The position numbers and the translations under genes are program-made. A stretch of 64,000 nt of DNA from an uncultured virus (IMG/VR IMGVR_UViG_2684623151_000005) (Duplodnaviria > Heunggongvirae > Uroviricota > Caudoviricetes), in IMG/VR virus record IMGVR_UViG_2684623151_000005; one strand, 5' to 3'. This document shows, piece by piece, positions 3,236 to 43,360 of the stretch. Positions within the stretch are counted from its first letter, which is position 1. The number at the start of each line of letters is the position of its first letter. The notes under the pieces were generated by a model. It was given only the letters and a program-made list of their open reading frames with translations. It did no database searches and was not told the origin of the DNA.

Positions 3236-3787
3236 TTATTCTCCAAATCCTTTGTTTTGTCTTATGGCAGTTTTAAGACTTTTAATATACTTAAAACCAC
3301 TACAATAATAATCTCTACCAATAGCTTCATAATTTATATATTCCTTTAAATTTGAAGGTATTTCACCTATAAATCCACTATTAGCAAGACACTCACCTAA
3401 TGTTTCATCCTTGTCATCCTCTACATTTTCAAGAAAATCTATACTTGATAGATTTCTTAATGCTTTATCTACATACTCTACCTCTTCATCAAAGAATGAA
3501 TATAAAGATAAAAGTAATCTCTTATCACATTCATCTGCATTATAAACTCTTAATAAGAATTGATTAAGAGCATAAATATTTGAATATTCATTTATATAAA
3601 ATATATCAGGATAATTATTTTCAATAGATGAAATTATAAAATCATTTTCACCTACAGCTTTGTTTATAGCTTCTTTTAAATCTTTCTCCTGCATAGGTAG
3701 TGTAATCCAGTCACCATCTGCTTCCAATATTCTTTTCACAAAAATTTTAATTGTAAATTCCTTATTTTGCATTTTATTAATCTCCAC
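3236..3787 (-). CDS. ardA: ArdA-like antirestriction protein (DNA mimic)
   Basis: GDWITLPM at the N-terminus, EIPSNLKEYINYEAIGRD at the C-terminus, acidic composition. Confidence 0.8.
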   Translation of the reverse strand: MEINKMQNKEFTIKIFVKRILEADGDWITLPMQEKDLKEAINKAVGENDFIISSIENNYPDIFYINEYSNIYALNQFLLRVYNADECDKRLLLSLYSFFDEEVEYVDKALRNLSSIDFLENVEDDKDETLGECLANSGFIGEIPSNLKEYINYEAIGRDYYCSGFKYIKSLKTAIRQNKGFGE

Positions 3788-3799: not shown

Positions 3800-4366
3800 T
3801 TATTTTTTTAATTCATTTATTAAATCTTTAAATGTTATTTTGAAATAACATTCTTCCTTGTTATAATTTTTTATATATTTATCATAATTAAATTTTGAGA
3901 AAATTAATTTACTTAATATTTTCTCAAATTTTCTATATGAAATTTGATTTGACATACCTAATTGCTTCGAAACCATTAATGAAAATGTAGCTTCCACCAT
4001 TCCTCTTGATTGTATGTCTCCTGTAAGATAAGTACCTGGGAGTACTATTGCTTCCTTTTCACAAGGAAAAACAAAAATCTCCTCTTCTCCTGACAACATA
4101 TTTTTATATAAATTAGCTAATTTATTATGTTCTTCAGTTTTAACTTTATTTAATATATCAATTTCTTTATCATTTAGATTGTACTTAAATCTTTTTTCAT
4201 AAGTCTCAATTATTATTGACTTACTTTTAAAGTCAACATAGATATCTTTATTTTCTAAAAAGACATCCTCACCTATCTCCGAAAGATAGAATCCTAATAC
4301 TCCTTTCTTTATAAAATATGGGTATGAAAATCTTGAATTATTCTTTTGAATAACTACTTTTCCCAC
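3800..4366 (-). CDS. Hypothetical protein
   Basis: 188-aa ORF, GTG start with AGGAGGGG RBS. Confidence 0.65.
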   Translation of the reverse strand: MGKVVIQKNNSRFSYPYFIKKGVLGFYLSEIGEDVFLENKDIYVDFKSKSIIIETYEKRFKYNLNDKEIDILNKVKTEEHNKLANLYKNMLSGEEEIFVFPCEKEAIVLPGTYLTGDIQSRGMVEATFSLMVSKQLGMSNQISYRKFEKILSKLIFSKFNYDKYIKNYNKEECYFKITFKDLINELKK

Positions 4367-4487
4367 ATTCTCCCCTCCTAAAATAAAATGAATTTTCCTA
4401 TTTATATTTAATATATTGTATATCTTTGAATATCTTTTAATTCAAATTTATAAAAAAAAGATAAGTAGAAATTACTTATCTTCAAAG

Positions 4488-5204
4488 CTATAAATTTGTA
4501 AAGTTAACAACCTCTTTATTATTAACCATTATCCTTTTATCTGACTTAACATTTCCCTTTAAAACTTTTATTAAAGCTTCACACTTATTATATAAAGCAA
4601 TACCTCTCTTAGATGGCTCATATTTATTACCATTAGAATAATTCATATATTCATTTATAACATCAGCTTGACAAACATAAGCTCCTTTAACCCTAAACAA
4701 ATCAGAATAATAATCATACTGCTCTAAGATTTTTTCTAATTCCTTATTACATTTCAAATACTTATACCAAAGTAAATTATAGAACATAGTTCCATAATTT
4801 AAAGGCAACAAATAGCCTTCTATTAAAAAAGCTATTGGTTTTTTCCCTTTACCTTTTTTCCAATCATTATAGGTTATAAACTCACCTTTGTTATTTTTAA
4901 AGACCTTTGAATTTTGATAATGATTTTCTATAGAATTCAGAACTCCATTAACCTTAACTTTAGCATATAAAGCTGAAAATCTTTTATCTCCCTTAGAACT
5001 ACATTCAAGCGTTTTACTTTTTACTTCATATTCCTGAAGAGGCTCACAATGGTCCTTAACAAATTCATTATATTTTTCACATGGAACTATAATAGGCTTA
5101 AAGCACCCCATACAATAAACTGAATCAACAAATCCATCTTTCCCTAATACTATATACTTGCTTTTGCAATCTTCACATAATACATCTTTTAATACATATT
5201 CCAT
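4488..5204 (-). CDS. Zn-ribbon plus NADAR-like (ADP-ribosyl glycohydrolase-like) protein
   Basis: N-terminal CEDC/CMGC; LECSSKGDKRFSALYA...SIENHYQNSKVF resembles the NADAR E-x-x-(Y/F)-Q-x-x-K motif. Confidence 0.5.
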   Translation of the reverse strand: MEYVLKDVLCEDCKSKYIVLGKDGFVDSVYCMGCFKPIIVPCEKYNEFVKDHCEPLQEYEVKSKTLECSSKGDKRFSALYAKVKVNGVLNSIENHYQNSKVFKNNKGEFITYNDWKKGKGKKPIAFLIEGYLLPLNYGTMFYNLLWYKYLKCNKELEKILEQYDYYSDLFRVKGAYVCQADVINEYMNYSNGNKYEPSKRGIALYNKCEALIKVLKGNVKSDKRIMVNNKEVVNFTNL

Positions 5205-5291
5205 TATATAAACTCTCCCTTCCTGTTAAATAATTAAAAAATACCTAAATCTATATTAATTTAATATATAGATTTAGGTATTTAGATATAA

Positions 5292-5522
5292 TTATAACTT
5301 TAAATTAATAAGTCTTATAATATCATCTGTGTACTTGTCATCAATTTTATACGAATTAACATCTTCTAATTTTTTCTTTAACATTCTTTTTTCTTGTTTT
5401 AATTTCAAATTTTCTTCGTATAACAATTTTTCTCTAATCTTACTCTCTTCTAACTCTTTAGATATACTTTCCACTTTAGATTGCAATGTCTTATATCCTT
5501 TTAATAAATCTCTATATTTCAT
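5292..5522 (-). CDS. Small coiled-coil protein
   Basis: 76-aa K/E/L-rich ORF directly downstream of kptA. Confidence 0.5.
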   Translation of the reverse strand: MKYRDLLKGYKTLQSKVESISKELEESKIREKLLYEENLKLKQEKRMLKKKLEDVNSYKIDDKYTDDIIRLINLKL

Positions 5523-5528
5523 AGCTAA

Positions 5529-6107
5529 CTAAAAAACAATATACTCAACTGGTATATTAGATGTTTCCCATATTATATTTGATTTTTTAAAAAATTTTTG
5601 ATTTAAATCATTATGCAAATCTAAAGCTCTAATTTTCAATATTACTGGATTATTAGTCCTTCTCAACGCAACTCTTATAGCCTTATCTTCTATTTCTGAC
5701 AAGCATACATTATCTCTTTGCATAGATTTTATAAATCCACTTTCAATAATTTTTTCAAAATTTTCTTTTGTTGTCCCATGATATAAGATTTTAGGAGGTA
5801 AAGAGTCTAAATATCTATTTATATTTAACCCCTTAATAGAATGACCATAAACAGCTCTAATTGAGTTATCACGTATTTCATATCTACCATCTTCATCTTC
5901 TTCTACAATCTCCTCTATAATTTTTTTATTCAAAACATTGGCGTATTTATGCTGTTTTTTAATTATCTTCATAATTAAACTATCAATAGATACAAATCCT
6001 TCCTCATCAAGTTCCAATTCAAATTCTCCTGGATTATGTCTCAATATATAACTAATAGTAGTACTTAATTTAACTTTATTTAGACTTATATTATTCAAAT
6101 CAAACAA
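5529..6107 (-). CDS. kptA: RNA 2'-phosphotransferase (Tpt1/KptA family)
   Basis: SYILRH, LDEEG, GRYE, IRAVYGHS, LYHGT, VCLS; Arg-His-Arg-Arg tetrad appears intact. Confidence 0.92.
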   Translation of the reverse strand: MFDLNNISLNKVKLSTTISYILRHNPGEFELELDEEGFVSIDSLIMKIIKKQHKYANVLNKKIIEEIVEEDEDGRYEIRDNSIRAVYGHSIKGLNINRYLDSLPPKILYHGTTKENFEKIIESGFIKSMQRDNVCLSEIEDKAIRVALRRTNNPVILKIRALDLHNDLNQKFFKKSNIIWETSNIPVEYIVF

Positions 6108-6131
6108 CTCCTTATTTTAATCTTTAATGTC

Positions 6132-6175
6132 ATTATATGTTTTTATTTGACATTAGTCAAAAAATAAAATATAAT
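6132..6175. promoter_or_regulatory. Back-to-back sigma-A promoters sharing one TTGAC-N4-GTCAA palindrome (6147-6160)
   Basis: Plus: TTGACA(6147)-17-TATAAT(6170). Minus: TTGACT(6160)-17-TATAAT(6137). Confidence 0.85.
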
Positions 6176-6216
6176 TAAATTATTTTTTTAATTAATAAAG
6201 AAAGTTGGTATAAATA

Positions 6217-6996
6217 ATGTCAAATGAAAAAATACAAATCTCAAACAAATTAAATAGAAGTTTAAAATTTATAGGAAGAGGCTCTGCTTTTAATACTGAC
6301 GAACTTAATACATCTGCATACATAAAATACAATCGTACTATGTTGCTAATTGATTGTGGAGAGAATATTTTTTCCAATATAAAAAAGAATGGATTATTAG
6401 ATGATATTGATAATATATACATACTAATAACTCATTTACATTCTGACCATGTTGGAAGCTTAAGTTCTTTAATATTTTATATGTACTATGAAAAAAGAAT
6501 AAAAGCAAATATACTGTTATTCCCAAACTTAGAATTATATTTGAAATTACAAGGAAATATAAAAGGAATGCATTATAATGAAATAAAATCTACCTTTATA
6601 GATGAGCTTAACCTAAACTTTATTATAACAAATGAAACACATGAACAAATGAAAGAATCTAAAATATTAAGAATTGATAAAGATATATTAATTGAAGAAA
6701 CAAAACCTATACTACCTTCATATGGGTATAAAATAATATTTAAGGATAAAAGCAAATTATATTATACTGGAGACACCTCTTCATTCAATAAAAATATGTT
6801 AAAAGAAAATAATCTAATTATATATCAAGATATATGTTCAAGGGATTATCCTGGCAACATACATTTATCGCTTAAAAAGCTTTGTGAGATTGTTCCAAGA
6901 GAAGAAAGACACAAAATATACTGTATGCATTTAGACACCACTAAATTGTCAAATTTAGCCCAAAGTGAAGGTTTTAATATTGTCTCTATAGAATAG
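6217..6996 (+). CDS. Metallo-beta-lactamase-fold hydrolase (RNase Z-like)
   Basis: GRGSAF, LIDCG, THLHSDH, YTGD, CMH motifs. Confidence 0.85.
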   Translation: MSNEKIQISNKLNRSLKFIGRGSAFNTDELNTSAYIKYNRTMLLIDCGENIFSNIKKNGLLDDIDNIYILITHLHSDHVGSLSSLIFYMYYEKRIKANILLFPNLELYLKLQGNIKGMHYNEIKSTFIDELNLNFIITNETHEQMKESKILRIDKDILIEETKPILPSYGYKIIFKDKSKLYYTGDTSSFNKNMLKENNLIIYQDICSRDYPGNIHLSLKKLCEIVPREERHKIYCMHLDTTKLSNLAQSEGFNIVSIE

Positions 6997-7174
6997 AAAA
7001 TAAAAAAGATTAATTACTTTTACATAGTAATTAATCTTTTTATCTTTAGTAGCTTACTATTGTATGTATAAACTTTATTATCCACTTAAAACAAGCACTA
7101 AATCCGTTATTAGTAAATTATTTTAATGAGATACAAACAGCTTAACACGTTTGACTTCTGTCATATTAATCATA

Positions 7175-7528
7175 TTACTTTATTCCATAAAATTCAAGAT
7201 ATAAATACTTATTTCTTCTAAATAATACATAAAATAAGCCGAAAAACATTTGAAATCTATTCAATGAATTACCACATCTAATACAAACATCATCATCTTC
7301 ATTAACCTCAAACTCAATTTCATTGCTTCTACACCAATCTAATTTAAGATACATTTTATGTTTCCCTTTTGGCAAGTCTAAAACTATAACTTCTCCATCA
7401 CTTATATATTCAACAACTTTCTCATCCACATATATCTTATAATCTCTCCAAGCATCAGCGTACATACAAGCTCTTTTCATTATAACCATAATACAAACAC
7501 TCCCTACTATACCAAGTAAACATTCCAC
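7175..7528 (-). CDS. Hypothetical protein with C-terminal hydrophobic segment (true start may be downstream)
   Basis: ORF track; YKIYVD...GKHKMYLKLDWCRSN. Confidence 0.5.
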   Translation of the reverse strand: MECLLGIVGSVCIMVIMKRACMYADAWRDYKIYVDEKVVEYISDGEVIVLDLPKGKHKMYLKLDWCRSNEIEFEVNEDDDVCIRCGNSLNRFQMFFGLFYVLFRRNKYLYLEFYGIK

Positions 7529-7997: not shown

Positions 7998-9881
7998 TTA
8001 TTTTAAATTAAGATACATATCTATTATTTCTTTTCTCAATCTATTTTCAATCTTAAAGTGATTATTGGTATTATCACTTGTATTGTAAATATAATGAGCT
8101 AATTCATGAGCTAATGTATCAACAACATTCATTATACATCTATATTCATGTACACCTAATTTGTAATTTTGAGGAGATATATTCAAATTAAAATCCTTTA
8201 AACTTATTGCTTTTCTATCTAAAATTATTTCATCTCTAAACTTACAACCATAAACCTCTATTTTTTTAGTAGTATTTTTTAAAGTCTTAATTTTCTTATA
8301 TTCTCCATCTTGTTTATAATTTACAACACAAGATATATCAGCTAAATTAAACACATTTTCTTTTAAATTATATTTAATCCTAACAGCATCTAATAATAAC
8401 AAGAAATTACTCTCTTTATTATTTTTACTACCTAAATTATCAAATTTATGTTCAAATTTAAGTATATCTCTTATTTCTGATATTTCAGGTAATCCCTTGC
8501 TTTCAAAGAATTTATCATATAATACATTTTTTGATTTAATAACTTCAATACCATAATATTCTGCTAAAGCTATTTCAGTATTGAATTTATCAACTTCATT
8601 TGCAGATACCCAAAATACCTTCTTACTTCCTAAATACTTTTCTATGGTAATTACCCCACTTGAAGCCTTTTCTGTAACCTCATTTTCGTAACTATTAGAA
8701 TTAAGAGTTTTCTTTTCATACAAATCTCCATTGATAATAACTTTCTTAGTATTGCTATCAATTTTATCTAAAGTACATTTAGTTACATTACTAATACTAT
8801 CATCAAAATAATCCTCATCAGATATAAGTTCAGATTTGGTACAACTCCAAATTCCATCTTCACCAGGGCAATTTAAAACACTTAAAATTCTCTCTTTTGT
8901 AAGTGGTTTATCACTATTATCTGATTTCAAAGCATCAAGTCCTGTTATTTTTGCTTCTTTTTCAGAAATAGTTAAAAATCTCTTATAATCTTTAACTTCA
9001 AGATATTCTGATATTAATTTACAATTATCAGAAAAATCTATATTATTTTCTGAACAATTTTTTATATAATCTCTTAAAAATTGTTTTTTAAGCCCATAAA
9101 GCTTTTCAATGAATATATCATATTTTTCATCTTCTACAACACTCTTACGGTCAGGCTCTTTTAAAGTAATAGAGCTATCTTTAAATTTAACTATAAAAGA
9201 CATTCCATAATCGGGAAATGCTCTACAAACAAATCTATTTTCATAAAACATATATGATTTATATAAATCTTTATCTATAAAGAATCTTGCTGAAAATAAT
9301 TTATTTGAATACTCTTTAGAAAAGTCATATCTTTTAGGAGCGTACTCTTCAAATATTTCTTTTTTTTCTATAAGTTCTCCATTAAAAAAGACATCTGCCA
9401 CCATAAATCTTCCTATGTTTTTTATAGTTTTAACAATATCCTCAAAATCATTTTTAAAATAATCAGATTTTAAAACTACTTTAAATCCATTTATGGGACT
9501 TTCAACTTCTTTATAATCAACACTTAAATCACAAAGCATTTTATCAATGTCTATATAAATTCTTTTTTTCAGGCTACTTATAGATATAGTTTCTATGTTA
9601 GGTATTGATAAAACACTCCAAAAACCTATACCAAATCCTTCATTAGTAGTTTCCCAACTACTTGTATCAAAAGTTAATAAATCATCAGCCTTTTTTAAAC
9701 CTACACCATTATCTTCAAATGAAAATAAATTGTCATATAGATTGATATGAATTTCTTTAGAATTTGCTCTAATACTATTTTGAAACAATTCTGAAATAAA
9801 AGTTTTTTTATCAAAGACATTTCCTTTTATTATTTTTTTTATTTTTCCTTTTGTATCACTTTTTATCTTCATAATTATCAC
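7998..9881 (-). CDS. GHKL (HATPase_c) ATPase with C-terminal HEXXH metallopeptidase-like domain
   Basis: ELFQNSIRA, EDNGVG, GFGIGFWS at the N-terminus; TLAHELAH near the C-terminus. Confidence 0.75.
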   Translation of the reverse strand: MIIMKIKSDTKGKIKKIIKGNVFDKKTFISELFQNSIRANSKEIHINLYDNLFSFEDNGVGLKKADDLLTFDTSSWETTNEGFGIGFWSVLSIPNIETISISSLKKRIYIDIDKMLCDLSVDYKEVESPINGFKVVLKSDYFKNDFEDIVKTIKNIGRFMVADVFFNGELIEKKEIFEEYAPKRYDFSKEYSNKLFSARFFIDKDLYKSYMFYENRFVCRAFPDYGMSFIVKFKDSSITLKEPDRKSVVEDEKYDIFIEKLYGLKKQFLRDYIKNCSENNIDFSDNCKLISEYLEVKDYKRFLTISEKEAKITGLDALKSDNSDKPLTKERILSVLNCPGEDGIWSCTKSELISDEDYFDDSISNVTKCTLDKIDSNTKKVIINGDLYEKKTLNSNSYENEVTEKASSGVITIEKYLGSKKVFWVSANEVDKFNTEIALAEYYGIEVIKSKNVLYDKFFESKGLPEISEIRDILKFEHKFDNLGSKNNKESNFLLLLDAVRIKYNLKENVFNLADISCVVNYKQDGEYKKIKTLKNTTKKIEVYGCKFRDEIILDRKAISLKDFNLNISPQNYKLGVHEYRCIMNVVDTLAHELAHYIYNTSDNTNNHFKIENRLRKEIIDMYLNLK

Positions 9882-10874: not shown

Positions 10875-11795
10875 TTATTTTATCAAGTTAAATGTTATAT
10901 CTTTTTCTTGATTAAAATATTTAGACTTATTAGAACTCAATTTTTCAGGCATATTAACTTTAACTTTACCTTCAAATGCACCATAGAAAGCTTCTGAACC
11001 TATTGTTTCTACTGTATTAGGTATAGTCACTTCATCCTTTATTTTTGAAAAAGCAAATGCTTGTTCGCCTATATATTTTAAATGCTTAGGTAACTTTAAA
11101 GATTCTATAGGAGTTTTAGTGTACGCAGTTGCGTAATATTTACCAGTTCCTATAATTTCTACATTCAACCCATCAATACAACTTGGTACAATTAAATTTT
11201 TTGAAGCTATTTTAAATGCTCCATCATCTTCATCTGAATTTCCAGAATAAATGATTTTTTTATACTGTTCTGCCATATCCATATCTTCTTTACTCATAGT
11301 AAACTTTTTATTATTAGTATTTACACCTTGAACAACAGTTCCATCTGATTCTCCATAATAAGATATAATAGCTATAGATTTCTTAGAACCATCATTAACT
11401 ACAAAATAATCTCTATTTTTAATATATTTTGTTCCATCAGGACCAATAAAATATGTTTGAGTTATTTGCTTATCACCTAATGTTGCTTTTTCAGTCTTAC
11501 TTAAAACACATACATCATCTACATCATCAGGTTTAGATGTACTTTCATGAACAGGTTTAGTTAAATCTTTACTATCAGGAGTTATACCACCCTTATTATC
11601 AAATGAATTATCATCCATAGTTTTACTTGCATTAATCATATTATTGTTATTTGTAGTCGCAACATCTTTACCTTTCCATACTAACTTTGAAACAAGAAAT
11701 GCCCCTGTCGCAATTACAAGTCCTGCTACTATTAAAGTTTCTATACTAACATAGCCTTTACTATGTAATAAATTTTCTATTTTATATTTTTTCAT
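10875..11795 (-). CDS. Prepilin-like N-terminus plus BspA-type leucine-rich repeat adhesin
   Basis: KG|YVSIE then hydrophobic helix; C-terminal LPKHLKYIGEQAF and IPNTVETIGSEAF repeats. Confidence 0.75.
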   Translation of the reverse strand: MKKYKIENLLHSKGYVSIETLIVAGLVIATGAFLVSKLVWKGKDVATTNNNNMINASKTMDDNSFDNKGGITPDSKDLTKPVHESTSKPDDVDDVCVLSKTEKATLGDKQITQTYFIGPDGTKYIKNRDYFVVNDGSKKSIAIISYYGESDGTVVQGVNTNNKKFTMSKEDMDMAEQYKKIIYSGNSDEDDGAFKIASKNLIVPSCIDGLNVEIIGTGKYYATAYTKTPIESLKLPKHLKYIGEQAFAFSKIKDEVTIPNTVETIGSEAFYGAFEGKVKVNMPEKLSSNKSKYFNQEKDITFNLIK

Positions 11796-11947: not shown

Positions 11948-14355
11948 TTATGAAACATATTTAACTATTACATTTCTTTCATTAACAATATATTGGAGCT
12001 TTTGCAGTAATTTATATGAATGAGCTACTGATTTATCTGAAACTTTATACTCTACCCCATTGTTTACAAAAAATATTTCAGTATCGCCCTTCTCAATTTC
12101 GTTAGAATTAATCAATTCTCTAATTGCTTTAAATTGTTCTCTCGATTTATTTAAATATTTGCTTCCAGTTACTATTATTTTACTTGGTGTATTACTTAAA
12201 GCTATTGTTTTTATATCAACTACAGATTGAACTTGAATTTGCAATCCATAATCATTTGAATCAACTTTCCCCTTAAGAAGAACTATAGCACCATCATAAA
12301 TCATATTTTGATATTTAGAATACTGCTTTGGAAATGCAACTACTGATACTTCTCCTGTTCTATCCTCAATCTTAAAAAGACTCATAAGGTCATTATTCTT
12401 AGTTACTTTTCTTCTTTCTTCTTTTATAATTCCTGCAATTGTAATATATTCACCTATCATAGAACCTTTATCATCTAAGCGAATAATATTGTTTCCTTCC
12501 TCGTCAAATTCTTCATCATCTGCATTATCTAACAAATATCCACATTCTATTATGTTTTTATCCTTAAAATATTTATCATATTTATCAAGTGGATGACCTG
12601 TTATATAATAACCTGAATACTCTTTTTCTTTCTTTAACTTATATTGAGAATCAAATTCTTCAATATCAGGAACATTTATATCTTTAATTTCAAGAATATT
12701 TTCTCTTACATTTTCATCTTCAATATTATTAGCTAAATCAAATAATGATAATTGGTTAGCGTGTTTCTTTTCACTTGAAGCAAGTTTTGTAAACAAAGGA
12801 ATTGCTAAAAGCTTAGACCTTCTTGTTTTTTCAAATCCATCTACTGCCCCTGAATAAACTAATGCCTCCATTACTTTTTTATTAACACAATAATTAACAG
12901 CCATTCTCTCGACAAAATCTTGGAATGAATTAAAATTTCCTCTATACTTCTTTTCTTCCATAATAGAATCTGATATTTTACCCATATCTCTTATACCTTT
13001 AAGTCCAAATCTTATACTATCTCCATCTACTGAAAATAATCTATCAGAAAGATTAACATCAGGCTGTAATATATCTATTTTTAATTTCTTGCATATAGAT
13101 AAATAAAGAGTTATCTTTTCACTTGCACTTCCTTTACCTAATAAGTATGAATTTAACGTTGCAGTAAAATACTCTACTGGATAATAGTAAGCAAACCAAG
13201 CTGTTCTTATAGCTATATCAGCGTAGCCAGTAGCATGTGATTTATTAAATGCATATCGACCAAACTTCCTCATTTTTTCCCATATTTGTGTAGCTAACTC
13301 TTCTGATATACCTCTTCTTAAACAACCTTCTGTAATGATATTCCCTTCACTATCCACTTCCCCATACAAGAATTTTTTACCTAAAGGGTCAATCATTTCA
13401 TCTTTCTTTTTTGCAAACGCTTTACGAACATTATCTGCATCGCCTTTACTAAACCCTGCTAATTCTCGAACTATAAACATACATTGTTCTTGATAAACAA
13501 TTACATTATATGTATTGCTTAATATAGATTTAAGTTGTGGCATATCATAAACAATGTCATTCGGATTAAGCATATTCTTTATATAGTTAGGTATTTCATC
13601 AATTGGCCCTGGTCTATATAAAGAGATTCCTGCTATAAGTCTTTCAAATAATTCATCACCATTACTATTTTTATTTACATCTTGAAACAACTGTTCCATA
13701 AAGCTTGTCATACCAGGACTTTCTAACTGAAATACCCCAAATGTATTTCCTTGTGAAATATATTTATATACATTAACATCATTTATAGGAACATCACTTA
13801 AAGTTAATGGTTTCTTTCCCTCTTTAATCCTTTTTTCGTTTATATATTTAATAGTTAATGAGAATACACCCATAGTTCTTAACCCTAAAAAATCCATTTT
13901 AAGAACGCCCATCTCTTCGCATTCTGCCATGTTATATTGAGTTACTGCTTCTGATACTCCAGTATTTTGGTCTTTCATAATAACCTGTGGTATATAATCA
14001 TTTACTGAACTTCTTGCAATAAGCACTCCACATGCATGTTCTGACATATTTTTAGGCAATCCTTCTAATCTCTTAGCTATATTTATAAGATTTTTTACAG
14101 TTTCATCAGATTCATATAAATCTCTTAACTCAACATTTTGTTCTAAGGCTTTATTTAAAGTCATTTTAGGCTCTACAGGTACTAACTTAGCTATTTTATC
14201 CACTAAAGTTAATGGTAAATCTAATACTCTTCCAACATCCCTTAATACCATTTTTGATGCTAAAGTACCAAAAGTAATTATTCTTGAAACACACTCTTCA
14301 CCGTATTTTTCTTTAACATAATTTATTACTTCTTCTCTTCTACTATCTTCAAAAT
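11948..14355 (-). CDS. dnaE: DNA polymerase III alpha subunit, exon 2
   Basis: FEDSRREEVI, HACGV, KMDFLGLRT, GVFQLES, YQEQ, AFNKSH, C-terminal OB fold; joined to exon 1 it restores PDIDVDF (1264 aa total). Confidence 0.95.
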
Positions 14356-15092
14356 ATAGTGATAGGTAAGTTTTTGATATTATCTCCAACTTTTCCCCCA
14401 CTCCACACCGTACATGAGACTTTCACCTCATACGGCGTTCCCTCGTTTGAAATTTACTCAAACGACTTGAGCCTATCCCTCCACTACTTATTATCATAGC
14501 TTCATAGGTACTGTGGCTCTACTCTCACCTTGATTAATTAAGGTTATAGAAGATATATTTATCTTTCCTTTCCCTTAAAACATTTCATAGATAGCTATAT
14601 CTCAATGTTCAAGGCTTTCCACGTTCCAATACTCCTATCTGTACCGTATATCCGTAGGTGCTACCTAAATACCGTCATCAACCCAATCTCCTGTAAAGAT
14701 TGTAGGATTTTCTTAACCGAGCCTTTACTCATCCTTCTGATGATAAACCAAATTTGGTTCTCTTAGCATTTCTACTAAGCGACATTTACGATAAGTCATT
14801 CAGTAGTTCGTCTCCATTACACACTTTGGATACTCACCATAGTTATACTTCATAGACATCAGGCATATCAGTTACGACTATTTAAGCCTTTCCTCAACAT
14901 TATTTGTTAGGGTAACTTTTCTGCCTACTTTAACGGGCTTTACACAATTTCATAATAGCTTAATCAACTGCATACCGTAGCTTTAATGGCAATTCTTCGG
15001 AGCGTTACTTCCTCATTTAATTGCTCGGAGTATTAGTTCTCCTAAGTTTTACAACTTAGTGTGTAGTCTTTTCAACCACAAACGTGTCGCAC
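14356..15092 (-). mobile_element. ORF-less group II intron (bacterial class B-like), 737 nt
   Basis: 5' GTGCGACACG; domain V GAACGCCGTATGAGGTGAAAGTCTCATGTACGGTGT; 3' end ACCTATCACTAT; domain IV reduced to a short hairpin; precise removal restores the dnaE frame and motif. Confidence 0.95.
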
Positions 15093-16479
15093 CAACATCT
15101 ATATCTGGCATCGAAACTCTTGAAGGATTTAAAAAACGTTCAAACAGCAAACCATACTTTATAGGTTCAATTTCAGTTATTCTTAAACAATAAGCAACAA
15201 GAGAACCACATGCTGAACCACGCCCTGGACCTACCAATATTCCTCTACTTTTGGCAAAATTAATAAAATCCCAAACTATAAGGAAATATCCTGGGAAACC
15301 CATATTATTTATAGTTTCAATTTCAAAATTAAGTCTTTCTCTATATTCTTCGCTATTATACTTATCAGTACCTTCAAATCTAAATTTAAACCCTTCCCAA
15401 CATAAATGGACAAAATACTCTGTTTCATCTTTAAACCCTTCAGGAACAGGAAATTTAGGCATATATGTTTTACCAATATCAAATTCAAATTCAACTTTAT
15501 CTTCAATTTCTAAAGTATTAATTAAATACTCTAAGTTATCACCCCAAAGCTCGAACATATCACTTGAAGAATGTAGATGATACCCACTACCATCAAATTT
15601 ATAATGCTTTTCATTAATAGTTTTTCCAGTTTGCATACATAATAATATCTCATGTATATAATCATCGTCTTTTTCAGTATAATGACTATCAGTTGTAGCA
15701 ACTATCTTAATATTATGTTTATTAGCCAATTTAATTAGATTTTCATTGACATTTTCTTCTATTTTAATCCCATGCTTTTGAACTTCAACATATAAATCAT
15801 CATCAAACATTGATTTTAATTTTAATAGTACTTCTTCTGCCCTATCAATATTATCATTTCTTATAGCCTTTGGTATTTCTCCACCAAGACAAGCTGTTAA
15901 ACAAATAAGCCCTTCACAATGTTTTTCTAAATCATCATACCTAACATGAGGTTTATAATAAAAGTTATTCCATGATAAAGAAGATAATTTTAATAAATTA
16001 TGAAACCCTTTATCATTCTTAGCAAGAAGAACTAAATGGTTTGAAGTTAACTTGCCATCTATTGTTTCAGTATAAACTTCAACCCCAACAATCCCCTTCT
16101 TACCTGCATTTCTCATTTTCTTCCAATATTCAAGAGTACCAAACATATTGGCGTGGTCTGTCAAAGCCCCTGAATATTCTGTTTTTTCTACTATGCTTTT
16201 TATAGTGTTAGCACCATCAAGTAAGGAATACCCACTATGTCTATGTAAGTCAGAAAATATGATAATACTTACTGTAAATTCATCTATAATCTTAACTTTA
16301 TACTTATTTCTTAAATCAAATAAATTTCTATATGAAAAGTCAATTTTAAAACTATCTAAAATTAAATCATTATGTTTAAGTAATAAAACCTCTCCTTCTT
16401 TTACAAGGTCTAATACTCCCCCTATATTTAATTTTAAAAGCTCTAAATCTAAAGGATTATTTAAAAGTATCTTTTTCAT
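15093..16479 (-). CDS. dnaE: DNA polymerase III alpha subunit, exon 1 (PHP domain and start of palm)
   Basis: [62 protein letters not shown] before ATG 16479. Confidence 0.95.
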
Positions 16480-16980: not shown

Positions 16981-18210
16981 ATGAAAAAAAATAAAATAAG
17001 AAAAATATTAAGTAGAAAGAGTAAAACTTTAATAGTAGCAGGTCTTGTAATTGCTTCAGGTACTTTCCTAATATCTAAATTAGCATGGAAAGGTAAAAAC
17101 ATCACTAATTCAAATAATAACAAAGTTACTACTGTAGGTAAAAAAATAGATAAATCTTTAGATGAATTGCAGACAACAAAAAACAAAGAAGTTTCATGTA
17201 GTATAGAAAATCCATCTGATTTAGCTGATTATGAATATGCTGTTATAAACGATGAGCTTATTGAAAAGCAAATAAAAGATAGACAAAATAGCATTGACCC
17301 CGATGGTTGTACTGACCTTCGTGGTAGATACAATAATGAACCTTCCTGTGGTTCATGGAAAGATGACTTCAGAAAAAGAATGACCTCATTAAAAGGACAA
17401 ATAGTTATTACTGGTTATAATGGGAATAAAGATAATATATCTATACCTTCTTGTATTAATGATAAAAAAGTCGTTGCCATAGGAGTCGGTGCATTAACCT
17501 ATAAATCATTAAAAAAAGTGAATATACCTAATAGTGTTATTTATCTATGTACTCACTCAATGCCACAACTTATTGAATCAGTCGAAATACCTGATAGCGT
17601 TAAATTTATAGATGATTGGTGCTTCTTTTCGGCAAAATTAACATCAATAACAATACCTAAGACTGTTGAAGAGGTTGGATATTATGCTTTTAACAGCTCC
17701 CAATTACAATCAGTTACTATAGAGAGTGCTTCTACTAAAATTGATTCAGGTGCATTCTCAAATAGTCCAGTTTCAACAATAAATTTACCTAATGGCATTA
17801 AAAAGATACCTAATTGGGCATTCTATCATAGCATGTTAACAGAAATAAAGCTTCCTGAAAGTGTTACTGAAATTGGAGTTGGTGCATTTCAATCTTGCGA
17901 TGAAATTGAATCATTAGAACTACCTAACAATCTTGTTAAAATTGGCGATTTAGCATTTAGTTCTACCAGTTTAAAGTCAGTAAAAATACCTGATAGTGTT
18001 ATAGAAATAGGGAAAAGTGCCTTTTGTAATTGCAAATTAACATCAGTTTCTATAGGAAAAAATGTTTCCAAAATCGGGGATGGTGCATTTGATGGCAATA
18101 AATTGACATCAGTAACCATGCCTAAAAGATTTGATACTGAAAAAGAGAAATATTTTAGTGATTATTCTTCTAATAATCAAGTCTCAAATATAAAATTCAA
18201 TTTGATATAA
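16981..18210 (+). CDS. BspA-type LRR surface protein, paralog of 10875-11795, lacking the prepilin cleavage motif
   Basis: TLIVAGLVIASGTFLISKLAWKGK N-terminus; multiple IPxSVxxIGxxAF repeats. Confidence 0.85.
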   Translation: MKKNKIRKILSRKSKTLIVAGLVIASGTFLISKLAWKGKNITNSNNNKVTTVGKKIDKSLDELQTTKNKEVSCSIENPSDLADYEYAVINDELIEKQIKDRQNSIDPDGCTDLRGRYNNEPSCGSWKDDFRKRMTSLKGQIVITGYNGNKDNISIPSCINDKKVVAIGVGALTYKSLKKVNIPNSVIYLCTHSMPQLIESVEIPDSVKFIDDWCFFSAKLTSITIPKTVEEVGYYAFNSSQLQSVTIESASTKIDSGAFSNSPVSTINLPNGIKKIPNWAFYHSMLTEIKLPESVTEIGVGAFQSCDEIESLELPNNLVKIGDLAFSSTSLKSVKIPDSVIEIGKSAFCNCKLTSVSIGKNVSKIGDGAFDGNKLTSVTMPKRFDTEKEKYFSDYSSNNQVSNIKFNLI

Positions 18211-33600: not shown

Positions 33601-36354
33601 TTAAATAATCTTTTTATTTATATTCTTTTTATTTATTTTATCTTCATCTTTAACTTCATTATTTTTTTTATTTTGAGTTTTATTAGAATCTGTTTTGTTA
33701 TTTTTAGAATCAATATTATTTTTTACTCTTTTGTTATCATTACTATTCGATATATCTTTCTTTTGATTATCTTTATCTACAGTCTTGCTTTTTTCATCTT
33801 CTTTATTTTTAATATTTTCTTCTTGGGCTTTCTTCTTACTTTCTTCAGCTTTTCTCTTAGCCTCTTCAGCCTTTATTTTAGCTTCTTCTTCAGCTCTTTT
33901 TTTAGCTTCTTCCTCTTCTTTTTTCTTTTGCTCTAATCTTAAAACTACATTATATTGACTATTTAAATTATATCTAAAATCATCCAATTTAGCTTTTGCT
34001 CCATCATAAGCAGAAGGTTTCTTAATCTCATTTAACAATGTTTCTAAATTATTCAAATTATTAAATATATCATTGTACTTAGCTTTATCTTCTAATGAAG
34101 TACCTGTATTATCCAAATCAGAACAAGACTTATTTAATTCATCATTAAACTTATCTTCTCTAATCTTTTCTTCTTCATCTGTTAAATGATACATTGTTCT
34201 ATATACTAACTCTCTTAACCTTTGATTTTGCACATAATTTTCTTTATTTATTCTATCATTTTCATTTTCTTTTCTTGCTGATATTATATTCTTTAAATTA
34301 TATGCTGTATCATACAGTTTTCCATTCTTCTCATAAACAGAACTTGGCTTAGTAAACTCTATTTCTTCTAATCCATCATGTAAATATTCCATCCAATCTC
34401 TCCATATATGCCCTGGTGTTCCTCCACCAAACATATCAGGTTGTGGTTTAGGTATATCATCACCAACCCAAACAACAGTAGTATAATAAGGCGTATATCC
34501 TGCAAACCAAACATCTTTAGCACCATCAGTTGTACCTGTTTTACCTGCTTGAGATTCACCATAATTTCTCATTTTAACTCTATATCCAGTTGCCCCAGGA
34601 TTATTAATTACTGACTGCAAACAAGATGTAGCAAGGTAACTCGCTCCACTATCATACACTTTAGTTTCTTCAAAATTATTTTTGTATATTGTTTTCCCAT
34701 TGGTATCTGTAATTTCTACTACATTAGTAGGCTCTATAAACTCTCCATTTCTTTCTAAGGTAGAATAAGCACTTGCCATTTCAACATTAGTAGTTCCTTT
34801 TGTAAATCCTCCTATACCTATTATAGAAGTTTTATCTTCAGGCATAAGGTATCTAAACTCCATATCCCTTAAATAATTTAATGAATTTTCAACACCTACA
34901 AAATCTACAAGTCTTACAGCTATTGTATTTATAGATTGCTCTAATCCTTCTCTTAAAGTAACATATCCCTTGTATGAGTGATACCAGTTTACAGGACCAT
35001 TTTTTATAGGTGCATCATTATATAGTGTAGAGGGAACATATCCTCTTTCAAACGCAGGTGTATAACTAACTACAGGTTTTATAATAGAACCTGGTTGTCT
35101 CGGAGATAAGAAAGCTCTATTATAAGTAGAATCACTTCTTCCACCAACTATTGCAACGACTTCTCCTGTTTTATTATCTATAGTTACAACAGAAGCTTGT
35201 TTTTTATATCTTCCTTCATCATCTTTTAATGAGTATGGTTTCATCTGACTATCAACTATATTTTGAAGTTTTTTTTGCAATTCAGCGTCAATACAAGTCT
35301 TTACGGAATATCCTCCACTTTTGAACTTAGCTTGTGCTACTTCATAAAGCTTATTATAATTCTCATAGTATTCTTGTCTATCCTTATTATCTTTAAATTG
35401 ATATCTAAACACAAACCCTTCACTTTTAAGTATTTCATCTACTGCATTTCTTACAGCAAAGCTAATAGCATAAGGTAGATTAGCATCTATACTTTTATCA
35501 TCTGTTATATCTAACTTAATTTCTGATTTAATAGCTTCATCATATTGTTCAGATGAAATTTTATTTAGATTCTTCATTTGAACTAATATTATATTTCTTC
35601 TTTTAAGCGTATTTTCAATATTAGTTTTTGGATTGTACAAATATGGATTATTAGGTATTCCTGCTAAGAATGCACTTTCTGACAAAGTTAAATCTTTTGC
35701 AGATTTATTAAAGTAATATTGAGAAGCACTCTCTATTCCGTAGCATCCATTAGCAAAATATATATTGTTTAAATAAAATTCTAATATCTCGCTCTTTGTA
35801 AATTTTTCTTCTAATTCTTTTGCTATTACAATTTCTTCTACTTTTCTTGAAAGAGTTCTATTCATTGTTAAAAATACATTCTTGCTTAACTGTTGAGTTA
35901 TAGTAGAACCACCTTGTACATTACCACCATGACTTGTTAAGTATGTCTTTAAAGCTCTAAATATACCTTTATAATCAATAGCTCCATGTTCATAAAATCT
36001 TTCATCCTCTATTGAAATGAAAGCATCTTTAACATAATCGCTTACATCATCTGACTTTACATATTTATATTTAGCACTTTTGAACTCCTTAATTATATTA
36101 TCATCTTTATCATATAATATTGTTGGATTCTTACTATCAAATGTTTTAACAGAAACATCCTTTAGTTTATTTTGCCCTTCAACTATATATCCTTGAATTA
36201 TTGGATTATATTTATCGTAAATTCTATAAGCTCCATATATTCCTAATCCTACAGCACACATATTAATTCCTAATATACTTTTAATAAGAATAGAATGTTT
36301 CTTATTTTTAGCTTTTTTAGATTTACTTTTTTTATTAGATTTTGAATACTTCAA
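33601..36354 (-). CDS. Class A penicillin-binding protein (transglycosylase plus transpeptidase)
   Basis: EDERFYEHGAID, GGSTITQQL, RKVEE; SIIK, SIN and KTG motifs intact; charged C-terminal tail. Confidence 0.95.
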   Translation of the reverse strand: MKYSKSNKKSKSKKAKNKKHSILIKSILGINMCAVGLGIYGAYRIYDKYNPIIQGYIVEGQNKLKDVSVKTFDSKNPTILYDKDDNIIKEFKSAKYKYVKSDDVSDYVKDAFISIEDERFYEHGAIDYKGIFRALKTYLTSHGGNVQGGSTITQQLSKNVFLTMNRTLSRKVEEIVIAKELEEKFTKSEILEFYLNNIYFANGCYGIESASQYYFNKSAKDLTLSESAFLAGIPNNPYLYNPKTNIENTLKRRNIILVQMKNLNKISSEQYDEAIKSEIKLDITDDKSIDANLPYAISFAVRNAVDEILKSEGFVFRYQFKDNKDRQEYYENYNKLYEVAQAKFKSGGYSVKTCIDAELQKKLQNIVDSQMKPYSLKDDEGRYKKQASVVTIDNKTGEVVAIVGGRSDSTYNRAFLSPRQPGSIIKPVVSYTPAFERGYVPSTLYNDAPIKNGPVNWYHSYKGYVTLREGLEQSINTIAVRLVDFVGVENSLNYLRDMEFRYLMPEDKTSIIGIGGFTKGTTNVEMASAYSTLERNGEFIEPTNVVEITDTNGKTIYKNNFEETKVYDSGASYLATSCLQSVINNPGATGYRVKMRNYGESQAGKTGTTDGAKDVWFAGYTPYYTTVVWVGDDIPKPQPDMFGGGTPGHIWRDWMEYLHDGLEEIEFTKPSSVYEKNGKLYDTAYNLKNIISARKENENDRINKENYVQNQRLRELVYRTMYHLTDEEEKIREDKFNDELNKSCSDLDNTGTSLEDKAKYNDIFNNLNNLETLLNEIKKPSAYDGAKAKLDDFRYNLNSQYNVVLRLEQKKKEEEEAKKRAEEEAKIKAEEAKRKAEESKKKAQEENIKNKEDEKSKTVDKDNQKKDISNSNDNKRVKNNIDSKNNKTDSNKTQNKKNNEVKDEDKINKKNINKKII

Positions 36355-37652: not shown

Positions 37653-38696
37653 TTATTTATTAAAATATTCATTTAAAACTCTATTTGCACGATTTATATC
37701 TAAATCTTTATCACTATATTTTTTATCTTTATATATAAAGCTATCAAGAGCCTCACCATTCTGTTTCAGGTCAGTTAATATAACCCAACCCTTTTTGCCA
37801 TAAATTTGTCCCTTAGAAATTGAATTAATAGGTATTTGTAATGTATCTAAATTTTTATTATCCATATTATAAATAGTATAAGCTAAATTAAGAGCTTTCA
37901 TAAAACTTATATCAGTATCAATATTATCCCATAATTCTCTTGCTATCTTAGGGTACTTTACAACACTAATACCTTTCATTTTCTCTATTAACTTATTCAA
38001 TACTATTCTTTGTCTTTCTGTTCTTGAATAATCTCCTCCAACATTATAACGTATTCTTACATAAGATAAAGCTTGAGTTCCATTTAATAGCTGAACACCA
38101 GGATTCTCAACAAATTTAACATTTTTTCTCTCTATGGCATTATCATTTATATATTTATTAAGTTCTTTTATTTCATTTTTTTTGACATCTACATCTACGC
38201 CTTGAAGATAATCGACTATATCTACAAAACTTTGAAAATTGATAACAGCATAATAATCTATCTTCAAATTTAAATTTTTCTCTATTGTATCTTTAAGTAA
38301 GCCTATTCCCCCATATGCAAATGCTGAATTTATTTTTTGACTTCCATGATTTCTTATAGGTATATATGTATCTCTCATTATTGATGTTATTTTCACTTTT
38401 TTTAGATTAGAATCTATTGTTAATATCATAATACTATCAGTTCTACCATTTGATTTATCCCAATATCTAAAATCAGCACCACATAATAATATATTAGTTA
38501 TTCCTTTCACTTCTTTATAATTGAAATGCTCCTCTTCAGAAGATTTATCCGAGCTTTTATTACTATAATTAATGTTAGAGCTACATAACAAACTCCTATC
38601 TTCCTTTTTTTGTGTTAAATAAATAAAACAGCCTATTGTTGTACAAAATATCAATAATAACAAGAAAATAAGAATTTTTATTACTCTTAATTTCAA
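37653..38696 (-). CDS. LCP (LytR-CpsA-Psr) family glycopolymer transferase
   Basis: N-terminal TM; GRTDSIM, SIMRDT, KINSAFAYGG, YVRIR, GDYSRTERQ. Confidence 0.93.
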   Translation of the reverse strand: MKLRVIKILIFLLLLIFCTTIGCFIYLTQKKEDRSLLCSSNINYSNKSSDKSSEEEHFNYKEVKGITNILLCGADFRYWDKSNGRTDSIMILTIDSNLKKVKITSIMRDTYIPIRNHGSQKINSAFAYGGIGLLKDTIEKNLNLKIDYYAVINFQSFVDIVDYLQGVDVDVKKNEIKELNKYINDNAIERKNVKFVENPGVQLLNGTQALSYVRIRYNVGGDYSRTERQRIVLNKLIEKMKGISVVKYPKIARELWDNIDTDISFMKALNLAYTIYNMDNKNLDTLQIPINSISKGQIYGKKGWVILTDLKQNGEALDSFIYKDKKYSDKDLDINRANRVLNEYFNK

Positions 38697-39707: not shown

Positions 39708-40265
39708 CTAAACTGTTTTCTTTTGAGAAACATCTAAATAACATTTACCCAAAATATCTTTTGATATATCTAAGCATCCAACAGAAGCATTACGACTATC
39801 TAAACTATTATTTCTATTGTCACCCATAACAAAAACTTTTCCTTTTGGTATAATTTCAGAAACAAATTCAGTTATATTCATTGGCTCTTTAATATAATCC
39901 TCATTTATCTCTGTTCCATTCAAATATACTTTTCCGTTCTCTATTAGTATTTTATCTCCTGGTAAACCTATAACTCTTTTTATTAGTAATCTATCACCAT
40001 TATCTAAACAACTTTTCGTAACAACAATATCACCATGATTTATTTTTGAAAGTCTATTCATAAGCATATAGTCTGAATTATTTAAGGTGTTTTCCATACT
40101 ATGACCATTGACTTTTACTGGCATTGCTACTGCTCTTATAGTAAGTCCTATACCAAGTCCAATTAAGATAACGATTAAGTTTTCAGCAATTATTTTCTTC
40201 CAGCTTTTTTCTTTAGCTTCTAAATTACTTTCATTATTTTTTTTCATTAGTTTTCTTAAAAGCAT
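39708..40265 (-). CDS. lepB: Signal peptidase I
   Basis: GHSMENTL, IKRVIGLPGD, GDNRNNSLDSR. Confidence 0.95.
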   Translation of the reverse strand: MLLRKLMKKNNESNLEAKEKSWKKIIAENLIVILIGLGIGLTIRAVAMPVKVNGHSMENTLNNSDYMLMNRLSKINHGDIVVTKSCLDNGDRLLIKRVIGLPGDKILIENGKVYLNGTEINEDYIKEPMNITEFVSEIIPKGKVFVMGDNRNNSLDSRNASVGCLDISKDILGKCYLDVSQKKTV

Positions 40266-41980: not shown

Positions 41981-42055
41981 TGATGTGTAGCCTAATGGTC
42001 AGGCAGTTGGCTGTTAACCAACCTTACGAGGGTTCAATTCCCTCCACATCAGCCA
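41981..42055 (+). tRNA. tRNA-Asn(GTT)
   Basis: Cloverleaf TGATGTG/CACATCA, loop CTGTTAA, encoded CCA. Confidence 0.9.
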
Positions 42056-42128
42056 CGTTCATTACATCAGTTGGATAGATGGGCTATGTTTAAATAGCAA
42101 GTCATAGGTTCAAGTCCTATATGAACAT
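42056..42128 (+). tRNA. Atypical/pseudo tRNA with 6-nt anticodon loop GTTTAA
   Basis: GTTCAT/ATGAAC acceptor, CATC/GATG D-stem, GCTAT/ATAGC stem, ATAGG-TTCAAGT-CCTAT T-arm; no CCA. Confidence 0.65.
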
Positions 42129-42560
42129 ACTAATTATTCTTTTTGTTAATCTTATTAAGTTAAGATTTTATACATATATTGTTTATTGTGTTCAATAAAC
42201 AGTTTTAAACTTTATAATTAGGGAAATTACATGATATTAGGAGTCCCCCTGTTTGTAATTTAATCCTCGGATGTTACATTAGGTTGTTTATCAACAATAG
42301 GGAGTGCAAGGCGTTAAATATATATTAAATCTAATCTTCATCTATTTTACATTTTTTAGTAGTTTGTTAATTGTTTTTTCATAATAAGATGAATTTTTTT
42401 GACTATTATTAGTTTTAATTATATTTAGAATAGTTAATTTGCAAGAGTAATAAAAAATAAAAATAGTACTCGCTCGAAATAACTTGCGTAGGGATAGTGG
42501 ACATGTAACAGCAACTTGTTTTGAAATATACGAGGTTTGGGTTTGTGAGTTGCATAACAT

Positions 42561-42648
42561 GGAGAGTTGGTAGAGTGGTCGATTACATCAGTCTTGAAAA
42601 CTGAAGGTGGTAAAACATCCAAGGGTTCGAATCCCTTACTCTCCTCCA
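42561..42648 (+). tRNA. tRNA-Ser(TGA)
   Basis: GGAGAGT acceptor, loop CTTGAAA, long variable arm, CCA. Confidence 0.92.
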
Positions 42649-42895
42649 TTTTAGTAACATAATAAAGTAGAGGCATTTTAGCTGTACTACAACAAAAGAA
42701 GCATTTTAGCTATCTTTAAATTATAGTTGCTATTGAATGTTGACATATAAAGCAGTTCGTATATGCTGTTTTTTATTGAGTTCTCGCAGGGTTTTAATGC
42801 ATTACCACAAATACGATAGGCTATAAATTGTAAATAAAATAGCTGAAAGAAAAGCATATTGATTAAGGGTTGGCTATTGTGTCATATAGTAGCTA

Positions 42896-42966
42896 AAGTA
42901 AGTAGTTTAATTAAAACATCATAGATACCATATGAAGAATGTGAGTTAAAATCTCACCTTACACCT
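42896..42966 (+). tRNA. Degenerate tRNA-Val(TAC)-like
   Basis: GTAAG/CTTAC, TCATA-GATACCA-TATGA, GTGAG-TTAAAAT-CTCAC; lacks U33, TTC and D-loop GG. Confidence 0.5.
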
Positions 42967-42972
42967 TTATAT

Positions 42973-43048
42973 GCTGATGTAGCTCAACTGGTAGAGCAAT
43001 TGACTTGTAATCAATAGGTTGTGGGTTCAAGTCCCACCGTCAGCTCCA
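42973..43048 (+). tRNA. tRNA-Thr(TGT)
   Basis: Canonical cloverleaf, loop CTTGTAA, CCA. Confidence 0.95.
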
Positions 43049-43083
43049 TTCCTTCTATGTTAAATAATTTTTTGAATATCTTA

Positions 43084-43170: not shown

Positions 43171-43174
43171 TTAT

Positions 43175-43244: not shown

Positions 43245-43253
43245 ATTTAATAT

Positions 43254-43329: not shown

Positions 43330-43360
43330 TTTAAATTTTATAATAAACAAAAAAATATAT

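Follow-up and report, generated by a model that had tools for sequence, protein, structure and literature searches.

The dnaE gene in a 64,000-nt stretch of DNA filed in IMG/VR as record IMGVR_UViG_2684623151_000005 (hereafter, the window) is split by a group II intron that lacks an open reading frame (ORF). The intron is 100% identical to sequence in the megaplasmid pJFP838A of Clostridium perfringens JP838 (NZ_CP013615.1, 404,393 bp). Comparison with related copies shows this putative selfish element to be an ORF-deleted copy of a mobile group II lineage that homes on the second Asp codon of the PDIDxDF motif in dnaE. The same comparison shows the predicted ribozyme to be of the RF02004 type, and its cognate protein to combine reverse transcriptase (RT), X, and HNH-like C-terminal parts.

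The intron and the gene that it splits

The intron, its structural parts, and the two exons map to the window as follows.

11948..14355, minus strand: dnaE exon 2, stop codon included; positions 108-260 of the DNA_pol3_alpha profile, then finger, HhH, and OB domains
14356..15092, minus strand: ORF-less group II intron of 737 nt, 5´ GTGCG ... 3´ CACTAT (Rfam, sequence, and junction; structure and covariation)
14358..14402, minus strand: domain VI; the likely branch point is a bulged A at 14363, eighth when counted from the 3´ end (RF00029 and fold)
14405..14438, minus strand: domain V; the triad position is CGC, the bulge is 2 nt long, and the loop is GAAA (RF00029 and fold)
14443..14465, minus strand: what is left of domain IV, a hairpin of 9 bp and a 5-nt loop (fold); ORF-bearing relatives hold ~1.94-1.96 kb with an RT/maturase frame in this loop
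14715..14721, minus strand: exon-binding site 1 (EBS1), CTCGGTT, located in the terminal loop of an AGGAU/AUCCU-closed hairpin; opposes exon positions -7..-1
14849..15041, minus strand: domain I core (RF02004, 141.3 bits)
14854..14859, minus strand: EBS2, ATGTCT (complementarity scan); opposes exon positions -14..-9 (AGATAT)
15093..16479, minus strand: dnaE exon 1, from an ATG at 16479 with a ribosome-binding site upstream; PHP domain and DNA_pol3_alpha profile positions 1-106; ends in ...SMPDIDV and the G of the split Asp codon

In the minus-strand reading, the intron starts with GTGCGACACG, the first base of which is 15092, and finishes with ...ACCTATCACTAT, the last base of which is 14356. 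Its ends fit the group II consensus (5´ GUGYG and 3´ AY), and its G+C content is 37.7%, against 25.4% for the window. Exon 1 closes with ...ATG CCA GAT ATA GAT GTT G (last base 15093) and exon 2 opens with AT TTT GAA (first base 14355), which completes the codon GAT. The predicted ligated junction, marked here by a slash, is ...GATGTTG/ATTTTGAA, and the codon that is split is the second Asp of PDIDVDF, a motif of which we take both Asp residues to be catalytic from work on E. coli DnaE. When the exons are joined in silico they form one frame of 1264 codons from the ATG at 16479, itself preceded by AAAGGAG, and the only stop is terminal. All five Pfam domains of DnaE (PHP, DNA_pol3_alpha, finger, HhH, and OB) are found over the two exons, with the DNA_pol3_alpha profile interrupted by the intron between positions 106 and 108.

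Two of the 14 Rfam matches in the window are to introns, and both fall here. RF02004 (group-II-D1D4-5) matches over its full model (1-201) at 15041..14849 on the minus strand (141.3 bits, E 4.3e-31, gathering score 34.5), and RF00029, which covers domains V and VI (D5/D6), matches over its full model (1-77) at 14440..14356 on the minus strand (63.8 bits, gathering score 40). No sense-strand ORF of 40 or more amino acids lies inside the intron, the listed ORFs of 46 and 53 amino acids both being antisense. The last 120 nt fold into the domain IV hairpin, whose arms are UCGUUUGAG and UUCAAACGA, followed by domains V and VI (z -3.88; none of 200 shuffles folds as well).

Covariation across the 5´ parts of 12 copies (RNAalifold) gave 183 consensus pairs, 33 of which have changed on both sides. 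A column-by-column complementarity scan located EBS1 and EBS2; across the family, 88.2% of cells pair between the EBS and the intron-binding site (IBS) of the exon, compared with 31-44% in slid registers, and the EBS/IBS covariation score was matched by 4 of 500 shuffles. EBS2 pairs with IBS2 at all six positions in the window and at five or six in all 11 sequences scored. The window copy has 10 substitutions of its own in domains I to III (D1-D3). Six are in paired columns, two double changes included; all six keep the pair and none breaks one. The double changes could have come from recombination, and the same pair states do occur in other lineages. In D5/D6, a single bulge base distinguishes the window copy from L021, an ORF-bearing relative, and the same base is found in two other ORF-bearing copies, L015 and L018. 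As judged from these alignments, the ribozyme is intact apart from the interior of domain IV.

No phage structural genes were found among 25 window ORFs scanned against PHROGs, and we therefore treat the host element as a plasmid. The gene content of the window fits a very large plasmid (an actin-like partition protein, ArdA, a TraG-like protein, a primase, SecA, a class A penicillin-binding protein, the hibernation factor HPF, and a tRNA array). The split dnaE is the sole DNA polymerase III (Pol III) alpha gene of pJFP838A, where no second one was found, and the 300-kb plasmid of C. difficile BI1, which bears a related ORF-less copy, likewise has one. A beta-clamp C-domain had no match on either plasmid. 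A six-frame search of the whole 404-kb pJFP838A and the whole C. difficile plasmid returned zero matches to RVT_1 and zero to GIIM, and RF00029 matched each megaplasmid exactly once, at the dnaE intron. In the accessible text of PMC4747519, pJFP838A is described as a unique megaplasmid, and the word "intron" is absent.

Much of what the initial annotation, made from the letters of the window, had said of this locus is borne out. It placed a group II intron in an Asp codon of dnaE, and this placement holds to the base, on the minus strand; of the group II covariance models, which it had proposed as a check, RF02004 and RF00029 match in full. Its descriptions of the intron as ORF-less and of domain IV as a small hairpin agree with the ORF list and the fold, respectively. 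It claimed that splicing would restore PDIDVDF and a DnaE of 1264 amino acids; the frame supports this, and a natural uninterrupted allele has exactly that length. Its expectation that automated annotation would call two genes matches RefSeq, which has two separate dnaE coding sequences (CDSs) at the split locus of pJFP838A, and its statement that the window encodes no RT or maturase can be extended to the entire plasmid. Finally, the intron-less dnaE alleles that it suggested looking for exist, both in a sequencing run (X2) and as an NCBI protein, as described below.

A lineage with a fixed site and repeated loss of the ORF

An exact scan for a 23-nt word of the intron over species-representative genomes, metagenome contigs, and viral contigs found seven loci in the genomes and five metagenome contigs; there were no exact matches in the viral contigs. 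In the phage collection D5/D6 alone matched, covering no more than 17% of the query. The genome carriers are Tissierella creatinophila, a Tissierella metagenome-assembled genome (MAG), Clostridium bornimense, Clostridium sp. UBA701, and three further MAGs. This is a rare lineage: the 5´ 636 nt of the intron occurred in 1 of the 399 genomes scored in an even class-level sample, namely the centre genome itself, with two more genomes unscored.

Across the lineage the ribozymes are 82-97.5% identical to that of the window, and they share one insertion point. Both flanks can be read in 10 other copies (L002, L014, L015, L017-L022, and L024), and in every one of them the intron follows the G of the second Asp codon (MPDIDxD/F; G/AT or G/AC). 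L013 stops at the intron borders, and L016 gives the 3´ flank alone, which agrees on the site; metagenome contig L023 gave the same BLAST rows as L016. In each of the nine long copies the interior of domain IV measures 1936-1964 nt and contains a single intact frame (606-612 codons), and RVT_1 matched in both of the long-copy frames scanned. In a PDB sequence search with the cognate intron-encoded protein (IEP), maturases of classes IIC, IIB (T.el4h), and IIA (LtrA) came out at similar E-values, from 1e-48 to 6e-43, over the RT part alone, with no one class standing out; the class B suggested by the initial annotation is a tentative assignment. Three copies are ORF-less, those of the window, of L024, and of the C. 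difficile plasmid. The interior of domain IV measures 3 nt in the window copy, 3 nt in L024 with slightly different endpoints, and 87 nt in the C. difficile plasmid, where ~60 nt remain from its 5´ end and 27 nt from its 3´ end.

The intron was acquired horizontally, because its ribozyme is 97.5% identical to that of the ORF-bearing L021, while the 600-nt flanking exons of the two are 60.0% and 57.7% identical. The two megaplasmids give a similar picture, with DnaE proteins of C. perfringens and C. difficile that are 46.5% identical and introns that are 87.5% identical; third codon positions of the two dnaE genes are 49% identical. Their dN/dS of 0.40 was left unused as evidence, dS being saturated at 1.19. 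Together, these comparisons show a horizontal and recent entry of the putative element into dnaE of pJFP838A.

In a maximum-likelihood tree of 12 ribozymes and two outgroups, from which the 5´-truncated L016/L023 was left out, the window copy clusters with the ORF-bearing L019, L020, and L021 (support 100/100). A single clade of the three ORF-less copies was rejected (approximately unbiased test, AU p = 6.8e-06), and the nearest relative of each is ORF-bearing, at 97.5%, 94.3%, and 83.8% identity. Because the branches of the tree force such losses and one ORF-less clade is rejected, this reconstruction shows that the ORF was lost independently at least two times.

Presence of the intron is polymorphic among near-identical plasmids. 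In run X2, presumably a DNA run, one contig has just two letters separating 14355 from 15095, so that the motif reads GAT GTG GAT TTT, and has 12 further differences in 962 nt (~98.7% DNA identity). An NCBI protein from C. perfringens, 1264 amino acids long and encoded on a contig of 402,186 bp, agrees with the conceptual splice product at all but six residues (99.5% identity) and is identical across the junction. Since natural uninterrupted alleles agree across it, we consider the predicted junction to be right. In run X1 the intron-bearing form comes with an exon haplotype that departs slightly from that of the window, at four positions, three of them common to the intron-less allele. Eight of the 10 listed differences from the uninterrupted allele are synonymous, which is weak evidence, as the differences are not assignable to one lineage.

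Several other introns came to light alongside this lineage. The chromosomal dnaE of Clostridium sp. UBA701 has three introns, at positions 4149-8823 of L017, a locus on a 562-kb contig:

4149-4481: group I intron (RF00028, 96.7 bits), just upstream of FLNPER
4588-7268: ORF-bearing group II intron at PDIDxD
8079-8823: second group II intron, ORF-less, 745 nt, splitting the Glu codon of VYQ/EQVMQ

In L020 and L022, dnaE exon 1 has a stop-rich break ~35-300 nt upstream of the group II intron, at the position of the group I intron in L017, which suggests that it may be that same intron. The C. botulinum plasmids pRSJ20_1 and pOsaka2020-1 (L005 and L006) carry related RF02004-type introns with ltrA, at the 3´ end of ssb and inside a DEAD/DEAH helicase gene, so that this intron family seems often to reside in replication-type genes of large clostridial plasmids. 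In two studies, metatranscriptome contigs of gut and faecal origin (runs X12 and X19) contain the ORF-bearing form of the intron over window positions 14351-15093. One such contig, of 2724 nt, has ~1954 nt inserted at the domain IV loop and belongs to a different dnaE; besides the ORF-bearing variant, these RNA runs contain D5/D6 fragments of other introns.

Proposed splicing and a candidate source of a maturase

The DnaE of the plasmid would be made only after the intron has been removed from the mRNA. Removal would follow the usual branching pathway, with attack on the 5´ splice site by the domain VI bulged A and subsequent ligation of the exons, restoring GAT. The initial annotation held that production of the polymerase depends on self-splicing or on a maturase acting in trans, and this dependence is upheld, the only dnaE of the plasmid being split and the replicon encoding no maturase. 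Its remark that bacterial group II introns usually encode their own maturase stands as a generality from which the window copy departs, yet the copy fits the pattern of ORF-less introns that sit beside IEP-encoding relatives. Its view of dnaE as an essential gene holds in part: this is the only Pol III alpha gene of the plasmid, but it is a megaplasmid gene and at most a possible essential replicase of the host.

We lean towards trans-assisted splicing by a maturase made elsewhere in the cell, with the LtrA protein of pJFP838C, a co-resident JP838 plasmid, as the candidate. Because the window copy encodes no maturase, having no RT/maturase ORF of the retroelement form in domain IV, a helper from another intron is the likeliest source. 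The cell does have a structurally related intron that encodes an IEP: of the co-resident plasmids searched (pJFP838C, pJFP838D, and pJFP838E), one, pJFP838C, carries a full-length group II intron (RF02004 at 191.9 bits, RF00029 at 63.1 bits). Its annotated ltrA is 643 amino acids long, the open RT frame spanning 644 amino acids with no internal stop. This LtrA is 47% identical over 622 amino acids to the cognate IEP of L021 and has the same layout. An IEP-related gene is therefore present in the genome, which sets JP838 apart from the C.te.I1 type, where there is none. Splicing would probably be less efficient than in the ORF-bearing relatives, and the intron is better viewed as a probably degenerating selfish element than as a dedicated regulator.

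A number of observations weigh against this reading. The candidate helper is just 47% identical to the cognate protein, and the pJFP838C ribozyme is 60.1% identical to that of the window in D1-D3 and 85.4% in D5-D6. The helper search took in pJFP838C, pJFP838D, and pJFP838E, leaving out the JP838 chromosome (CP010994) and pJFP838B (KT020842), and the ORF-less copies of C. difficile and L024 have no known helper. The whole interior of domain IV is gone, and in the Ll.LtrB intron this interior contains the high-affinity binding site of the maturase. EBS1 pairs with four of the seven positions of IBS1 (GATGTTG, 15099..15093), the poorest match among 11 copies, the others reaching 7/7 in two, 6/7 in six, and 5/7 in two. 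Three hypervariable columns of EBS1 oppose the hypervariable codon x of DxD; the window copy has the EBS1 of its ORF-bearing sisters, and its mismatches fall at the three central positions, over its own Val codon. Its terminal branch in the tree is 0.021, compared with 0.004-0.010 in the ORF-bearing sisters. No spliced form of the window allele was seen in four runs of Logan contigs (window positions 13900-15600), and the insertion, as dated by the near-identical alleles, is so young that intact exons say nothing about splicing. A loose end in run X12 encodes PDIDSDF in a dnaE with no interruption; it is at most a possible splice product, since the intron-bearing contig has different exon letters.

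Several of these observations would also be expected if the intron were hardly or not spliced, with the plasmid dnaE effectively knocked out, the megaplasmid copied by host polymerases, and the copy too young to have decayed. The recent insertion, the poor EBS1 match, the longer terminal branch, and the lack of both a maturase in cis and a domain IV binding platform are all in keeping with such a dead insertion, and the missing beta-clamp domain implies at least partial reliance of the plasmid on host replication proteins. We nevertheless consider this outcome unlikely, given that every window-specific substitution in a paired column preserves its pair, that the allele persists in run X1 on a different exon haplotype, that most differences from the uninterrupted allele are synonymous, and that the split gene is the only one of its kind on the plasmid. 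Protein-independent self-splicing in vivo by a stripped-down ribozyme, as proposed for C.te.I1 of Clostridium tetani (PMC4424553), strikes us as more doubtful still. The core is complete and its structure conserved, ORF loss has recurred in the window copy, the C. difficile plasmid, and L024 with no visible decay of pairing in the window, neither megaplasmid has an RT or maturase, and C.te.I1 provides a precedent. However, group II introns mostly require protein at cellular magnesium concentrations, as is established and as the accessible part of the same review states, the EBS1-IBS1 pairing is weak, and a related IEP in the same strain makes independence unnecessary.

The initial annotation had further raised the possibility that the intron acts as a conditional switch, with regulated splicing gating replication of the plasmid or the cell, and this idea found no support. 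Production of DnaE does hinge on splicing, and the ORF-less dnaN introns of Trichodesmium, which are spliced by the RIR maturase, have been read as a means of coordinated expression in the text of PMC12584367 available to us. In the present case, the locus has no conserved extra structure, ligand-binding element, or regulator. We regard a switch as highly improbable, and favour a selfish element over it, because the intron is polymorphic among near-identical plasmids, rare and patchy in distribution, horizontally acquired, and poorly matched to its own exon, with no extra structure. If splicing is indeed assisted in trans, the maintenance of one plasmid might rely on another mobile element. 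The only replicative polymerase of pJFP838A would then be made only with a maturase from the intron of the NetF toxin plasmid or from a chromosomal copy, and a lineage specialized on the catalytic DxD codon of dnaE would be moving between chromosomal and megaplasmid dnaE genes of Clostridia while repeatedly shedding its maturase. This wider picture is a tentative one, which we would not yet expect to hold in full.

Neighbouring genes and related systems

On the plasmid, dnaE is flanked on both sides by genes for BspA-type leucine-rich-repeat (LRR) proteins, at window positions 10875-11795 and 16981-18210. In the C. difficile plasmid, genes for an AAA ATPase and a VWA protein lie immediately upstream of dnaE, and by this comparison the LRR gene upstream of dnaE in the window appears to have been inserted into a conserved gene order, AAA-VWA-dnaE. 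The megaplasmid also carries an array of 11 tRNA genes with a drum RNA inside it, a set of housekeeping genes of the cell type, and a likely anti-defence and RNA-repair cluster.

3236-3787, 4488-5204, 5529-6107, 6217-6996, and 57507-58163: likely anti-defence or RNA-repair genes, namely ArdA, a DarT1-associated NADAR-like protein, the RNA 2´-phosphotransferase Tpt1/KptA, a metallo-beta-lactamase (MBL)-fold protein with a sub-threshold match to Apyc1, and a Thg1-like protein
33601-36354, 37653-38696, 39708-40265, 53958-56135, and 61827-62387: housekeeping-type genes, namely a class A penicillin-binding protein, a LytR-CpsA-Psr protein, signal peptidase I, a short SecA (725 amino acids), and a ribosome hibernation factor
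41981-44827: array of 11 tRNA genes, with the drum RNA at 42735-42862 (RF02958, 59.2 bits)

The intron is of a known kind, namely a bacterial group II intron that lacks an ORF, interrupts a replication gene, and coexists with a related intron encoding a maturase. What is new is the lineage, whose insertion site is fixed at the DxD codon of dnaE, its occurrence on two megaplasmids of clostridia with no maturase gene of their own, and the repeated loss of the ORF, with ORF-bearing and ORF-less forms just 2.5% apart. The open literature searched yielded no account of a group II intron in a clostridial dnaE, subscription papers and the intron database being outside its scope; those papers on group II introns and dnaE that were checked deal with inteins or host factors. 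The preference for a catalytic motif parallels the logic of inteins and homing endonucleases in conserved active-site motifs. There is also a consequence for annotation, in that the two "dnaE" CDSs of pJFP838A are one intron-split gene, as are the dnaE and "OB-fold protein" pair of the C. difficile BI1 plasmid. Near-identical megaplasmids with and without the intron, together with ORF-bearing and ORF-less ribozymes at 97.5% identity, form a natural comparison that could reveal the cost to a host gene after its intron loses the maturase, and the pace at which ORFs are lost.

Bacterial ORF-less introns are described as rare and as nearly always residing in genomes with related IEP-encoding introns, with trans-splicing shown in a cyanobacterium and C.te.I1 as the one exception to the pattern (PMC4424553, in its accessible portion). 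In that cyanobacterial case, Trichodesmium erythraeum, ORF-less dnaN introns are spliced with the maturase of the ORF-carrying RIR intron, as far as the available text of PMC12584367 and PMC4424553 goes. The pJFP838A intron is similar in that it is an ORF-less group II intron in the gene for a Pol III subunit, and its cell also contains a structurally related intron that encodes an IEP. Unlike the Trichodesmium introns, it interrupts dnaE (alpha) on a megaplasmid rather than dnaN (beta), it is a recent horizontal arrival with near-identical intron-less alleles, and its candidate helper, encoded by another plasmid, shares just 47% identity with the cognate protein; trans-splicing is here a proposal.

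C.te.I1 is, according to the same partial text of PMC4424553, an ORF-less intron that shows robust self-splicing in vitro and comes from a genome with no IEP gene. Both it and the pJFP838A intron are clostridial, ORF-less, and located in a protein-coding gene, on a replicon that itself has no maturase. In contrast to C. tetani, JP838 has a related IEP gene, and the pJFP838A intron has ORF-bearing relatives at 97.5% identity and shows no sign of alternative splicing.

The Listeria jumbophage LPJP1, with one RVT-encoding and three ORF-less introns (PMC12350094), offers another parallel as a large extrachromosomal replicon whose ORF-less introns are thought to rely on a related RT in trans. Its D5/D6 is 93.3% identical to that of the window over 89 nt. 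The RT-encoding intron of LPJP1 is on the same genome, whereas pJFP838A has none. The portion of PMC12350094 available to us, a 2025 survey of phage group II introns, has no occurrence of "dnae" or "clostridi".

A further comparison is with the ORF-bearing members of the lineage itself, in the chromosomal dnaE genes of Tissierella creatinophila, Clostridium bornimense, Clostridium sp. UBA701, and uncultured Clostridia (L013-L022). These have the same site, ribozyme (83-97.5% identity), and EBS2, and differ in having kept the interior of domain IV with its frame of 606-612 codons, where the window copy keeps the basal hairpin alone.

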